NCBI GenBank assembly: GCA_024137785.1
Contig: JAHRHZ010000024.1
Location: 9,475,885 to 9,539,884 of the forward strand
Direction: 5' to 3'
Length of the DNA: 64,000 nt
Origin: Ginglymostoma cirratum
Taxonomy: Eukaryota
Within the stretch, counting starts at the first letter, position 1. Every line of letters starts with the position of its first letter. The notes beneath the pieces are model-generated. The model was not told the origin of the DNA. It saw only the letters and a list, made by a program, of their open reading frames with translations, and ran no database searches. Below are positions 871-64,000 of this stretch, piece after piece. A program made the translations under genes and the position numbers.

Positions 871-1161
871 AAACCATTTTAAAACATGGAAAAATAAAAC
901 AAAGCATAGATTGTAAAGCAAAGCAATAAAAAGTGTTTGACTTTACAGTCATTGTTGTTAAGTGCTCTGCCATTGACCTTGGGCTTGGTAGACAGCCAGG
1001 AGTCCTCTTCATTGTTTTGTCACTGAAAGTGGGGGAAGAAAAATCAATTCTATCTCATAGTCTCTTTCATTTCCACCGTAGAAGGGAATGGAAAATGCAC
1101 AGCCATTTTGCCTCACTCAGCATTTCAAAGTTGTAGCCTGCAGTTTAAAATCTTCCTTAGT

Positions 1162-1370
1162 TAACACAGTGTGGAGCTGGAGGAACACAGCAGGCCAGGC
1201 AGCATCATAGGAACAGGAAAGCTGACGTCTCGGATGGGGACCTTTTCCGAAGAAGGGTCCTGACCCGAAATGTCAGCTTTCCTGCTCCTCTGATGCTGCC
1301 TGGCCTGCTGCGTTCCCAGATCCACACTGTGTTATCTCTGCCTCCAGCATCGGCAGTTCTTACTATCTCT
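1162..1370 (+). mobile_element. Palindromic Penelope-derived non-autonomous element, two head-to-head pLTR arms
   Basis: 1162-1246 is the approximate reverse complement of 1250-1334; flanked by ttaaaatcttcctt at 1145-1158 and 1378-1391. Confidence 0.8.
1247..1274 (+). ncRNA. Degenerate minimal hammerhead ribozyme motif
   Basis: ccgaaga-a-gggtc-ct-gaccc-gaa-atgtc versus core CUGANGA-stemII-GAAA..UH; U4 substituted. Confidence 0.5.
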
Positions 1371-2689
1371 GAGTAAGTTAAAATCTTCCTTGCTGTTTTC
1401 TTACAGTAGCTGGCTCTTTTAGAGCTGTGAAAATTCACTCAATCTCAGTACCACACTTTCGATATTGTATGTCATATTATTTATTTAATGGCCGCCACGA
1501 ACTAAAACTTACAACAGAGGTAAATGTCACATGACTATACAAGCCAGCTAGTGTACTATGTACCCAATAAATGTCTACAAGACTATTTCTGTACTTGGAG
1601 AAAACAGATATGCTAAACTCAAAGAAATAATCTTATTGTTGTTCAGAATGGTTTAATTTAAAATAAGCTATTTTAATTTTACAGGGGAGAAAAGTGATAG
1701 CAGTCAATCGTCCAATTATTCAGTGTTTGATTACGTTGGCTCTTCTCTTTTCTCTGTGCTGTTAGTTAAGAATAAAAACAGGAACTAAAGTGGAAGCATG
1801 ACATTTTGAAGCTCTGTGAATGAAGTTTACATGTGTGTAGAATCTGATTCATCATCTCTGGCATTTTGTGCCTGAAACATTTGCTTTTTTTCCTACCGCT
1901 GACGCTGTCTGGTCTGCTGAATGTTTCCAACATTTTATGTTTGGGTGAGGTTTGGAGATGTTGAGAGAGTTAGACAGGGTGAGGTTGTGTAATGATTTAA
2001 GATGGAGATGAGAATTTTTAACCTGAATTTGAAACTGATGAGGAATGAGATGAGGGACATGTAAGAACAGATCTGGCACAAATGTTTTGAATAGATTTGA
2101 ATGTTTTGGAGTTACAGCAGTTAGAGGCTGGGTAGAACTAATACCAGCACAGATAATATTTTGAGGCAGGGGTTGAGGTGAGTTATATTGCGGAAGTGGA
2201 AGTAGGTTTTTTTTAAATGGACAAGACATTGGGTTGGACTTTTAGCTTATGCAACACCAAGTGAACAGTCAGGTTGAGCTTGGGGTGTGGGTAGGGATGG
2301 CAGGAAGTGGCTAGGGCTTACATTTATAATGCCAGTGATCAACTGAAGAATCTTGCAAACCATCCAAAAGTACATATCAGACAAGTAGAGTGACAACATT
2401 GATGCTGTAGCTATGCAAGCTTAGATAAATGCTGAACAGGATTTAGCATCTAACACTTCTTTTTGGCATTTTCTCTTCAGTGATCTAGACTGTAGAATCC
2501 ATCTGTCTCTATGGGATAGCAATTAGGATATTCAAAGATTTTGGATCTCGGCCATTTTAAAAGTCTAATGGTGTCCTATTTCTATTCCTCTCATTTAAAG
2601 TTTAACATTTCTGTAAAATTTTATGATAATTGATTACTTTTGGAAATGGATGAAACAAACGATGGACCCATGGACGTGTTCTCACAATT

Positions 2690-6339: not shown

Positions 6340-8022
6340 CCACGTATCCCACTGCCTACAGACAAAGGGGCTGGCCATGGGTACCTGCATGGGCCCAAGC
6401 TATGCTTGTCTCTTTGTAGGATACGTGAACCATCCCTCTTCCACAGCTGCACTGGCCCCATCCCCCACCTCTTCCTCCATTATATCGAAGACTATATTGG
6501 TGCTGCCTCGTGCTCCCGCAAGGAGCTCGAAAAGTTTATCCACTTTACTAACATCTTCCACCTCAATCTTAAGTTCAACTGGATCATCTCTGATACCTCT
6601 CTCTCCTTCCTAGACCTCTCTGTTTCCATCTCTGGTAACCACCTGGAAACTGATATCTATTTCAAGCCCACTGACCCCCACAGCTACCTAGAATATACCT
6701 CCTCCCACCCACCTTCCTGCAAGAATGCCATACCCTATTCCCAATTCCTTTGCCTCCGCCGCACCTGCTCCCAAGATGAAGCATTTTACTCCCGGACATC
6801 CCAGACGTCCTCTTTTTCAAGGACCGAAATTTCCCCCCCACAGTGGTCGAAAATGCCCTCGACTGCATATCTCGCATTTCCCGTACCTCATCCCTCACAC
6901 CCCTTCCCCGCAATAACAACAAAGACAGAATTCCCCTTGCCCTCATGTATCACCCCATCAACCTTCGGCAATCGTCTGCCAATTCCTCCACCTGCAATCT
7001 GACCCCACTACCAAGGACATTTTCCCCTCCCCACCTTTATCTGCCTTCCAGAGGGACCGCTCTCTCTGTGACTCCCTCGTCCACTCCACGCTCCCCACTA
7101 GCCCCACCAACCCCAGCACTTTTCCCTGCAACCGCAGGAAGTGCTACACCTGCCCCTACACCTCCCCCCTCACCTCCATTCCAGGCCCCAAGAAAACCTT
7201 CCACATTAAACAGATGTTCACCTGCACATCAGGGAGCTAATGTGGTATATTGCATCTGCTGTTCCCGATGTGGCCTCCTCTGCATCGGGGAATCCAAGCG
7301 GAGGCTTGGAGACCACTTTGTGGCGTACCTACGCTTGGTTCGTGACAAACGACTGCACCTCCCAGTCGTGAACCACTTCAGCTCCCCCTCCCACTTCTTG
7401 GATAACATGTCCATCCTAGGCCTCCTCCAGTGCCACAATGATGCCACCTGAAGGTTGGAGGAACAGCACCTTATATTTCGCTTGGGAACCCTGTAGCCCA
7501 ATGGTCTCAATATCGATCTCACAAGCTTCAAAATCTCCCCACCTCCCGACCTCATCCCAAGACCAGCCCAGCTCGTCCCCACCTCCTTGACCTGTCCATC
7601 TTTTCTCCCACCTATCCGCTCCTCTCACCTCACTGACCAAACTCCACCACCACTTCCTACCTACTAACCTCATCCCCGCCTCCTTGACCTGTCCGTCTTC
7701 CCTACCACCTACCTGCCCCTCCATCCCTACTGACCAACCCCCATTCCAACTCCCTACCTACACTCACCTTTACTGGCTTCATCCCTGCCTCTTTGACCTG
7801 TCTGTCTTCTATCTGCCTATCTGCTCCTCTATCCACCTTCCATCATCGCCTCCCCCTCTCTGTATTTACTTCAGAGGCCCCTTTCCCTCCCCCATTTCTG
7901 AAGAAGGGCCCAGACCCAAAACATCAGTTTTTCTGCTCCTCTGACGCTGCCTGGCCTGCTGTGTTCATCCAGCTCTACACCTTGTTATCTCAGACTCCAG
8001 CATCGGCAGTTTCTACTATCTC
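6340..8022 (+). mobile_element. 5'-truncated Penelope-like retroelement (RT C-terminus, GIY-YIG endonuclease, pLTR), frameshifted
   Basis: QTKGLAMGTCMGPSYACLF (PLE RT motif), HYIEDY (YxDD remnant), SFLDLSV, YFKPTD..YLEYTSSHP, and NVVYCICCSRCGLLCIGESKRRL (GIY-YIG) spread over ORFs 6314-6613, 6406-7002 and 6843-7451. Confidence 0.93.
7898..7925 (+). ncRNA. Degenerate hammerhead ribozyme motif in the Penelope pLTR
   Basis: ctgaaga-a-gggcc-ca-gaccc-aaa-acatc; G12 and the helix III CpG have decayed; position fits the known PLE pLTR hammerheads. Confidence 0.6.
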
Positions 8023-34939: not shown

Positions 34940-35985
34940 AAGGTGAAGCACGGTGATAGTATCACATGGCATGATTGAAAGTATTCTCAAAGAGGAAATG
35001 GGACTTTGTTTCCACAAGGACTGTGTGGTTATCACTTTTACAGCTGCTGTCATGGACAGATCCAGCTGTGGCAGGAGGATCGGTGAAGATGAAGGCAAGC
35101 TTACTCACCATCTGCTGCAGACCCAGTCTAGCAGCTATGTCCTTTAGGACCTGACCAGCTTAGTCAGGATTAGTGTTGCTGAGCCACACTTGATGATGGG
35201 CATTGAGGTGCTCAGAGTATATTTTGCAGCCTTGCCACCCTCTTTTCTTCCTCAAAATGATGTTCAACATGGACAAATATTGAATCATCACTTGAAGGAT
35301 GATGATACACAGTAATAAGCAGGAGAATCCCATGCCCCTGTTTGAACTGGTGTCCTAAAACTTGTTAAAAATCAAAAGAAGTGCAGATGTTGTAAATCAG
35401 GAATGAAAACAGAAGTTGCTGGAAAAGCTCAGCAGGTCTGGCAGCATCTGTGAAGAAAAATCAGAGTTAACGTTTCGGATCAGATGAACATTCCTCAGCA
35501 CTGTTCTGAGGAAGGGTCACCAGTATCGATGTTGAGAACTACCGGGCCAACTCTTTGCCAACTGTATACTGCTGTCCTGGCACCTCTGCTGAGTATGAGC
35601 TGCCAGTGGGAGGGGGATGTTTCCAGGGATGGTGATGGTGGTGTCTGGGACGTGGTTGGTAAATATGATTCTGTGAGTATGACTATGTGAGGCTATTGCT
35701 TGACTCATTTATTAGACAGTTCCCATAAGTTTGGCAGTCGTCCCCAAATGTTTTAAGAGGACTTTGCAGGTTTGACAGGTCTGTGTTTGCTGTTATTGTT
35801 TCTGGTGCGTAATTCGATGTCAGGTGGACTGTGTGGTTTAATTCCTTCTGGAGACTTTCTAGTGGTTTATCTAACTGAGTGGCTTGCTAGGCTATTTCAG
35901 CGTGCAGTTAAGAGTCAACAACATTGGGTCTGGAGTCTCAGATAGGCCAGACAGGGTAAGAACAGCAGTTTTCTTCACGAAAGGC
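34940..35985 (-). mobile_element. LINE family B 5' portion, interrupted by a Penelope pLTR insert
   Basis: Colinear with 24520-25330, including the SINE-core junction at about 35880-35985. Confidence 0.75.
35366..35521 (-). mobile_element. Penelope pLTR insert (subfamily B) with hammerhead core (35469-35498, minus) and the start of an inverted arm
   Basis: Minus strand ctgagga..ccgaaacgtt; plus strand ctgaggaagggtcacc directly after. Confidence 0.75.
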
Positions 35986-43483: not shown

Positions 43484-43650
43484 CAGAGATAGCAAGAACC
43501 GCAGATGTTGGAGTCATAGATAAGACAGTGTGAAACTGGAGGAACACAGCAGGCCATTACAGAATCAGGGTCCTGACCCGAAGCATCAAATTTCCTGCTC
43601 CTCTGATGCTTCTTGGCCTGCTGTGTTCCTCCAGCTCCACATTGTGTTAT
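43484..43650 (-). mobile_element. Palindromic Penelope-derived insert (subfamily A)
   Basis: 43520-43556 is complementary to 43613-43650; flanked by ataatt(g/a)tggatacta at 43462-43477 and 43649-43664. Confidence 0.75.
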
Positions 43651-47059: not shown

Positions 47060-47290
47060 GAGATAACAAGTTGTGGGGCTGGATGAACACAGCAGGCCAA
47101 GCAGCATCAGAGGAGCAGGAAAGCTTGACGTTTTGGGCCTAGATCCTTCATCAGAAAATTTTTTGATGAAGGGTCTCGGCCCGAACCATCAAGCTTTCCT
47201 GCTCCTATGATGCTGCTTGACCTGCTGTGTTCATCCAGCCCCACAACTTGTTGTCTCGGATTCTCCAGCATCTGCAGTACCTTTTATCTC
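47060..47290 (+). mobile_element. Palindromic Penelope-derived element with hammerhead motifs on both strands (47127-47154 minus, 47163-47190 plus)
   Basis: About 95-bp inverted arms; flanked by caaataaggcct at 47041-47052 and 47290-47301. Confidence 0.85.
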
Positions 47291-55392: not shown

Positions 55393-55667
55393 GAGATAAC
55401 AAGGTGTAGAGCTGGATGAACACAGCCGAAACGTCAAGCTTTCCTGCTCCTATGATGCTGCTTGGCCTGCTGTGTTCATCTTATCCACCTCCCCCTCTCT
55501 CCCTATTTATTTCAGAACCCTCTTCCCCTCCCCCATTTCTGATGAAGGGTCTAGGCCCAAAACCTCAAGCCTTCCTGCTCCTATGATGCTGCTTGGCCTG
55601 CTGCGTTCATTCAGTTCTACACCTTGTTATCTCGTATTCTCCAGCATCTGCAGTTCCTATTATCTCT
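55393..55667 (+). mobile_element. Penelope-derived insert: inverted arm plus tandem pLTR copies
   Basis: 55393-55425 inverted; 55426-55480 repeated at about 55557-55610; flanked by ggagaaggaataga at 55381-55394 and 55674-55687. Confidence 0.8.
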
Positions 55668-62049: not shown

Positions 62050-63045
62050 TTTGATTGATTGATTGTCACTTATACTGAAGTACAGCGAAAAGATTTGTTT
62101 ACAAACAGTCCAGGCAGATCGTAGTAAGTAAGAGATAACAAGGTGTAAAGCTGGATGAACACAGCAGGCCAGGCAGCATCAGAGGAACAGGAAAGCTGAC
62201 ATTTTGGGTCGGGACCCTTCTTCAGAGAATCTCATAGTAAGCAAGGACATACAGATCAAAATGTCTTAGACAGAGGCATTCGTATCACATTGCACAGGGC
62301 ATGCACTAGGCAAGATCAACATTAGCAAGATCAGCATTATTTGAGGCTAGAGAGTCCATTCATCAGCCTAATAACAGCAGGAAGAGCTGTTCCTGAACCT
62401 GCTCATGCATGTGTTCAGGCTTCTGTATCTTCTGCCTGATGGAAGACGTTGTAGGAGATCATTACCAGGTTGTGTTGGGTCTTTGAGGATGGTGGCAGCC
62501 TTTCCACAGCAGTGAGCCATGTAAATGGAGTCCATGGACAGAAGGTTCTGTGATGGTCTGGGCTGTGTACACCACCTCCTGTAGTTTCTTACGGTCCTGG
62601 GCAGACCAGTTGCCATAACGTGCTGTTATGCATCCAGACAGTGTGCTTTCAATTGTGCATCTGTTCATCCAGTTGGTGAGGGACCTTATGGACATGCCAA
62701 ATTTCCTTAGCTGCCTGAGGAAGAAGAGGCAATGTTGTGCCTTCTTGACCATCACATCTACATGGGAAGGCCAGGACAGATTGTCGGTTATCATTACTTT
62801 GAGGAACTTGACGCTCTCCACCCTCTCAACCTCAGTCCCGTTGATGCGGATGAGGGTGTGTTCTCCTCCTTTCTTTCTGAAGTCAATGATCAGTTCTTTA
62901 GTTTTGCCGACATTGAGAGAGAGGTTGTGATCATTGCACCACTTCACCAAGCCCTGTATCTTCCTTCTGTATTTTGACTTGTCGTTCTTAAATATCCGTT
63001 CCACTACATTGGAGTCCCCAGCGAACTTGTAGATGTCATTCATTG
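62050..63045 (-). mobile_element. 5'-truncated Rex1/Babar-type LINE with (CAAT)n tail and nested Penelope pLTR (62132-62227)
   Basis: ORF 62462-63043 YKFAGDSNVV..WCNDHNLSLNVGKTKELIIDFRK..KKAQHCLFFLRQLRKF. Confidence 0.85.
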
Positions 63046-63442: not shown

Positions 63443-64000
63443 CCAGGACCATAAGAAACTACAGGAGGTGGTGTACACAGCCCAGACCATCACAGAACCT
63501 TCCGTCCATGGACTCCATTTACATGGCTCACTGCTGTGGAAAGGCTGCCACCGTCCTCAAAGACCCAACACAACCTGGTAATGATCTCCTACAACGTCTT
63601 CCATCAGGCAGAAGATACAGAAGCCATGAACACATGCATGAGCAGGTTCAGGAACAGCTCTTCCTGCTGTTATTAGGCTGATGAATGGACTCTCTAGCCT
63701 CAAATAATGCTGATCTTGCTAATGTTGATCTTGCCTAGTGCATGCCCTGTGCAATGTGATACGAATGCTTCTGTCTAAGACATTTTGATCTGTATATCCT
63801 TGCTTACTATGAGATTCTCTGAAGAAGGGTCCCGACCCAAAATGTCAGCTTTCCTGTTCCTCTGATGCTGCCTGGCCTGCTGTGTTCATCCAGCTTTACA
63901 CCTTGTTATCTCTTACTTACTACGATCTGCCTGGACTGTTTGTAAACAAATCTTTTCGCTGTACTTCAGTATAAGTGACAATCAATCAATCAAACATACA
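63443..64000 (+). repeat. Inverted duplicate of 62044-62600 (about 99% identical), runs off the window edge
   Basis: Direct base-by-base comparison; about 6 differences. Confidence 0.95.

Follow-up and report, generated by a model that had tools for sequence, protein, structure and literature searches.

Structure of the palindromic insert

Close to the start of the 64,000-nt stretch of Ginglymostoma cirratum DNA analysed here (contig JAHRHZ010000024.1, hereafter the window) lies a short palindrome, at positions 1145-1391, which a first-pass annotation had placed in a separate class of tiny, non-coding inserts with a hammerhead ribozyme on each strand. The locus raises the question of whether such palindromes are elements in their own right or products of a known retrotransposon, and by which route they arise. 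The insert comprises 219 bp between perfect (100% identical) 14-bp direct repeats at 1145-1158 and 1378-1391 (plus strand), which were identified by sequence comparison within the window and represent the left and right copies of a probable target-site duplication. Its arms are arranged head to head and pair over 87 nt with 85% identity, and no ORF is encoded between them. Both arms reproduce the 3' end (7897-8022) of a Penelope-like element that is 5'-truncated and lies elsewhere in the window. The flanking repeat, the head-to-head pLTR arms with a stem of about 85 bp and the Penelope origin had been recognized previously and are confirmed here.

Positions within the element are counted from hammerhead C3 (window 1247), which is set to 0, with the nominal cleavage site after +27; the hammerhead numbering follows PMC4209133 and PMC11167929. 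The short, tail-less arm (1159-1242, minus strand) is a pLTR copy that spans about +6/+9 to about +93, the proximal end, and is short by about ten bases. The paired part of the long arm (1243-1338, plus strand) reaches the same proximal end and is complete to -4/-3. The arms meet at a T-run (1243-1246) that can be read by either arm and may represent 2-4 nt of microhomology or added bases. The insert is asymmetric, with the plus arm continuing into an unpaired tail of ~40 nt (1339-1377, plus strand), which lies between the proximal and distal ends of the element.

A hammerhead on each strand, as annotated before, is not confirmed for this insert. The minimal core of the plus arm (1247-1277, with C3 at 1247 and nominal cleavage after 1274) is decayed, reading CCGAAGA at 1247-1253 (U4 to C) and GAAAU, i.e. 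with a change after GAAA, and the minus arm, starting at about +6/+9, lacks the CUGANGA box and contains GAGA in place of GAAA. On the transcribed strand, the CUGANGA and GAAAC-GUC core is thereby not intact. None of the four matches obtained in an Rfam scan of the window belongs to a hammerhead family, and a match of a miRNA family to the hairpin was rejected as far below the gathering score. The RNA fold of the insert has a predicted energy of -147.2 kcal/mol (z -15.1, 0 of 200 shuffles), and the predicted minimum-energy structure buries the hammerhead core in the stem. The long dsRNA hairpin suggested for read-through transcripts is consistent with this predicted fold and would form only if the locus is transcribed; a single transcript would carry no more than one ribozyme in sense orientation, held within the stem.

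No empty site was found in the only relative compared, which is ~4% diverged in the flanks and carries the insert. Its contigs enter the insert from both sides, by 27 nt on the left (below the 31-nt rule) and 33 nt on the right, and its table of joints is swamped by other copies of the repeat. No host gene was identified among the 99 longest of 370 non-repeat frames, which lack Pfam matches above cutoff. The window opens within another tailed arm, of a younger subfamily (1-102), and one solo arm is found twice with the same flanks in opposite orientation (62132-62226 and 63818-63912), indicating an inverted local duplication.

Parent element and sister inserts

The sense strand is fixed by a broken, 5'-truncated element of the parent type (6347-8022, plus strand), which retains the C-terminal part of the RT, a Cys linker, a GIY-YIG remnant, the 3' UTR and the pLTR and is homologous to a longer copy in the sampled stretch L150. 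Pfam searches with fragments of the 6347-8022 element remained blank; in the L150 copy, RVT_1 (E 3.8e-6) and GIY-YIG (E 0.007) were both under the curated cutoff, with their motifs visible. The parent combines an RT, a C-terminal GIY-YIG endonuclease and the same pLTR, as in endonuclease-bearing (EN+) Penelope-like elements, and the insert has the inverted, 5'-truncated head-to-head pLTR and the 30-40-nt tail at one end only (1339-1377) of their insertions. A Cys linker of the form C-x4-CxxC is located at ~7126-7155, and L150 encodes a similar motif. In the accessible text of PMC8557442, a CX2-5CxxC linker ahead of the endonuclease is tied to Neptune elements, and by this linker motif the parent may belong to the Neptune clade. 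The name Penelope1_Vert had no match in the literature searched. An endonuclease-bearing Penelope-like retrotransposon gave rise to the insert, which is very short, decayed and a dead by-product of a known retrotransposon class in an already published layout; the palindrome has no demonstrated function.

In copies that include the ORF start, the hammerhead is followed by the tail and then by the long frame, whose first ATG lies after the tail. L187 and L206 were rejected as full-length elements, as they consist of a 5' piece joined to a terminal piece, and no intact full-length copy was found among the copies examined. Ahead of its conserved region, the N-terminal ORF contains a variable Thr/Ala/Pro-rich repeat stretch (L032:2300-2900, L042:250-1000).

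The same geometry had been assigned to further inserts at 35366, 43484, 46469, 47060, 55393 and 58480, of which only the insert at 47060-47290 has two complete cores (15-bp duplication). The others differ: the insert at 43485-43650 combines a tailed arm from +55 with a tail-less arm from -6 (16-bp duplication), that at 55393 consists of three pieces, and those at 35366, 46469 and 58480 belong to a second family (family B), with a second arm of only ~20 nt, a left arm consisting of the tail only and a right arm from +13, respectively.

Arm ends and their pairing in the genome

The wider population was characterized in 120 stretches of 10 kb together with the window (970,497 readable bases, 0.97 Mb), which were taken without regard to the repeat, and arms were mapped against a natural copy. 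Because ~45% of the first 60 stretches read N, later stretches were chosen next to readable ones; sampling took no account of the repeat, yet was not random across the genome. The 3' ends of 147 arms are bimodal, with 73 arms ending at a proximal site (near +94), 69 at a distal site (near +128) and five unclassified. Arms of the two types are combined almost exclusively with each other: the 37 head-to-head pairs comprise 31 distal+proximal, one proximal+proximal and no distal+distal combination, in addition to five unclassifiable pairs (p 8e-9), and in ten of the 37 the centre is unreadable owing to N runs. Duplications of at least 7 nt flank 31 of 35 pairs (mismatched-flank null: mean 1.1, maximum 5), which supports target-site duplication. 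Arms of both types are also found unpaired (37 and 36). Among 41 short unpaired arms, 15 are flanked by a duplication of their own (null 1.3), and none is detectable in the other 26. Family B exhibits 12 mixed pairs and one distal+distal pair among the 13 classifiable of 17 pairs, with duplications in 11 of the 17 (null 0.3). Long copies share the two-arm layout, and L1-like non-overlapping inversions occur among the copies as well.

At the palindrome centres of L082, L093, L113, L119, L125, L129, L131, L135 and L147, N runs of ~400 are found, sometimes with sequence repeated on both sides. These are probably assembly gaps at hairpins, in which case young palindromes would be undercounted. Furthermore, L070:5683-6300 and L148:7550-8170 each contain a tailed arm together with 480 bp or more of other sequence, nearly identical and inverted, ~20 kb apart on one contig, which represents either a local duplication or a pLTR-mediated capture.

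Arm starts and the upstream region

The first-pass annotation had expected the arm junctions to lie at a preferred place relative to the hammerhead, and a random distribution along the element, which would have spoken against this reading, was not found. Among 111 uncensored arm starts, 40 are located at -7..+2 (36 more are censored by N, edges or subfamily breaks), corresponding to 5.7 per 100 nt, a rate 14-fold higher than at +7..+70 and 63-fold higher than at -300..-8. This peak window was picked after viewing the family A data, and two entries in the peak are local duplicates. Family B has 59 of 98 arm starts at -8..+2, and unpaired arms exhibit the same peak. There is no excess at the ribozyme cleavage site, where +26..+31 holds 3 of the 111 starts, not above neighbouring bins. 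The arms are joined at the edge immediately ahead of the ribozyme and not at its cleavage site.

Genome-wide, 55,274 exact cores of the young subfamily were identified, of which 30,326 (55%) keep the six upstream bases and 24,948 lose the upstream context within 6 nt, with 3,206 ending at -5, 4,344 at -4, 11,411 at -3 and 5,987 closer to the core, counts to which point mutation adds some. With 11,411 copies, the commonest end is not -4 but -3 with an extra T, which is present in 78 of the first 100 copies listed; an end at -3 plus T needs added bases or slippage. In 6 of 30 ORF-start copies this point is hidden by N, 13 begin further downstream, and of the 11 that reach it, ten stop and one runs on, which differs from the 55% run-on of all cores (p about 0.002, calculated by hand) and suggests an ORF-bearing RNA without anything upstream.

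A TATA-like hexamer begins 29-32 nt before A(-4) in 51 of 88, 29 of 45 and 10 of 20 copies of three subfamilies, denominators that include some truncated copies, and falls inside the TATA window of -32..-29 given in the accessible part of PMC1779604. Likewise, CCCATT at A(-4) fits the BBCA+1BW initiator as described in the text available from PMC5287114, and family B matches it at five of six positions. An extra G marks the 5' junctions of capped, full-length L1 copies (PMC11702581, in part). Here, 60 of the first 100 copies listed (of 4,344) have a G directly before A(-4), and 40 of the first 100 listed have one before C(-5), against an expectation of 26% among non-C bases in either case. The G excess is confounded, with ~9 of 28 G cases inspected by eye not derived from flank or partner, ~7 possibly so derived and the rest ambiguous, and no G excess was observed in the small sample of family B. 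The Penelope element of D. virilis has an internal TATA-less promoter, according to the accessible text of PMC2377424, so that the promoter type need not be general.

Proposed route of insertion

The DNA contains two head-to-head arms ending at +94 and +128, a target duplication and arm starts piled up at -7..+2. We consider it likely that both strands of a staggered cut prime reverse transcription at two fixed internal sites of the RNA and that the resulting cDNAs run off the RNA 5' end. The two arm ends (+94 and +128) would represent RT start sites, one of which would be used by each target strand, probably on one RNA. This RNA may start at about A(-4), behind the TATA-like box, and would probably be capped. 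After run-off of the cDNAs at the RNA 5' end, the two cDNA ends could be united by end-joining with resection, microhomology or added bases, and the palindrome would be made anew at each insertion. An anole element has been reported to behave similarly in vitro, in that both strands are nicked and then extended, from two internal starts that flank the tail, and ribozyme cleavage is not needed (PMC11167929, in the portion available). Frangieh et al. describe, in the accessible part of their article, start-site use without a strand difference, and the strict pairing is therefore not explained by their assay.

Somewhat more tentatively, and with slightly less than even confidence, we hypothesize that the stubs are fossil 'strong-stop' cDNAs: a dimer would prime both strands near the capped 5' end of one RNA, and run-off would be followed either by joining to the partner, yielding a palindrome, or by a template jump, yielding a partial tandem. 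In 24 of the 30 ORF-start copies (L206-L235), a 5' piece is joined to a terminal pLTR segment, and 19 of these 24 segments start at -8..+3, a pattern that we read as run-off and a subsequent template jump. Comparable template jumps are made by the R2 RT. The 5' pieces of the ORF-start copies end in clusters near +400, +457, +570 and +598, in a search limited to copies reaching at least about +365. Within one insertion, two segments have the same unusual 5' end (-193 in L219, -108 in L220), as would be expected if both had run off one RNA end. In the relative's contigs, many joints from different upstream places land at L220:1629 (about +240), a possible preferred landing point.

According to a self-priming proposal in PMC3846280 and a remark on the tail in PMC8557442, both accessible in part, the two arms could also derive from a single event, in which one cDNA folds back or an antisense RNA primes itself, the mirror arm is copied from the first arm, and the endonuclease trims one end and leaves the tail. 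Arms within one insert are indeed more alike than arms across inserts (a median of 7.5% of other arms match better than the own partner, 30 pairs) and some junctions contain short snap-back additions, but likeness is also expected from one shared RNA or from shared age, and tail-less arms are found alone with their own duplication. Among 22 resolved pairs, a few of them complex, the tail-less arm is the one extending further 5' in 11 (by as much as about 1.1 kb) and the tailed arm in seven, the remaining four being ties. A mirror of a single sense cDNA cannot outrun its template, and simple fold-back thus fails in half of the cases; an antisense template would be compatible with these counts. 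We regard this route as unlikely. In another alternative, which we consider rather unlikely, two primings hold and the pile-up at -7..+2 reflects an RT stall or a processing site, such as a C-rich tract or a 3' splice site, instead of a transcription start. This would be in line with the C-run that starts at -5 in family A, with the pyrimidine tract and CAG just before the core in family B and with the D. virilis intron that ends at helix I (PMC4209133, accessible text). However, family B lacks the C-run at this place and family A lacks the AG, the stops are not preceded by a constant upstream exon, stops at this point are far more frequent among ORF-start copies than among pLTR copies at large, and an added G on the sense strand is not expected from a stall.

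The palindromes could instead form a self-propagating family of double-ribozyme elements comparable to MITEs or retrozymes, in line with about 25 short palindromes per Mb and with the layout shared by 40 of 40 scored genome matches, which were obtained with a query biased to that layout. In contrast to the fixed internal structure of such a family, the centres (29-46 nt) differ in all 22 cases that were parsed among the 30 best palindromic matches, and each palindrome was therefore built at its insertion. Either arm order and all lengths occur, and only 3 of the 15 short pairs that could be resolved retain two complete cores. We consider such a family very unlikely, and the separate class of double-ribozyme inserts proposed in the first-pass annotation is not upheld. 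Hammerhead self-cleavage could likewise set the template end, as one of the 24 terminal segments begins at +28 (L223), the position at which one jump also lands (L164), but the arm starts at +26..+31 do not exceed those of neighbouring bins, and the breaks of 79 direct tandems genome-wide, distributed across +24..+44 with no spike at +27, show no enrichment of jumps onto the cleavage product. Cleavage as the main route is contradicted by the arm-start counts, and we assign self-cleavage only a minute probability.

Comparison with known elements

The insert resembles insertions of EN+ Penelope-like elements such as Pen2a_Av, for which the accessible text of PMC3846280 and PMC8557442 describes an inverted, 5'-truncated copy in head-to-head orientation, a 30-40-nt tail at one end, a TSD and a palindromic junction. 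In contrast to Pen2a_Av-type insertions, there is no ORF between the arms here, and the duplications are mostly 10-17 bp instead of 8-10. The parts of both articles available to us favour self-priming and contain no pairing or junction statistics. The Poseidon element PAc of Anolis (PMC11167929, available portion) is similar in its two internal RT starts bounding the tail, the nicking and extension of both strands, the predicted dimer and the dispensable hammerhead cleavage. Its ORF begins inside the hammerhead, whereas the long frame of the element described here has its first ATG beyond the tail, and inverted genomic products and the RNA start are not discussed in that portion.

Penelope-like pLTRs encode minimal type I hammerheads (PMC4209133, in part), and the same minimal core is found in the family studied here. 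The accessible text of that article also reports dual hammerhead motifs on opposite strands, 100-700 bp apart. In contrast to these hammerheads, the cores of the insert are broken, and dimer folding needs two sense copies, which are absent from a palindrome. Dimer folding would be possible in two bare-hammerhead mini tandem arrays found elsewhere (G000:C87:27750057-27750230 and G000:C222:31293692-31293864), which consist of five 35-nt and four ~43-nt units, respectively, arranged head to tail. Non-LTR retrozymes, as described in the available part of 10.64898/2026.07.22.740005, are likewise pLTR-derived, non-coding and hammerhead-bearing, but form head-to-tail tandem arrays, whereas the insert is a dispersed, single head-to-head insertion. 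In LINE-1 twin priming, a second reverse transcription on the reciprocal end preserves a discrete TSD (PMC11702581, in part). There, the second primer anneals internally and the pieces do not overlap, in contrast to the arms described here, which usually derive from fixed sites and copy the same stretch.

Implications for Penelope-like retrotransposition

The locus itself is ordinary, a dead copy in a known layout. Its sister copies are moderately interesting, as they provide testable population evidence on Penelope-like insertion; extrapolation from 24 stubs in 0.97 Mb gives on the order of 10^5 stubs in the genome. The origin of inverted ends, tails and partial tandems in Penelope-like elements is described as unresolved in the accessible text of PMC3846280, PMC2377424, PMC8557442 and PMC11167929, and no report of the pairing rule or of the start pile-up was found in the literature searched, a search that did not extend to older subscription papers. 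If the stubs are fossil strong-stop cDNAs, one rule would account for inverted pLTRs, the one-sided tail and partial tandems. For the published in vitro system, the model predicts different start sites on opposite strands, cDNAs ending at the RNA 5' end and jumping after run-off, and it also predicts a core promoter and an RNA start for a vertebrate element.
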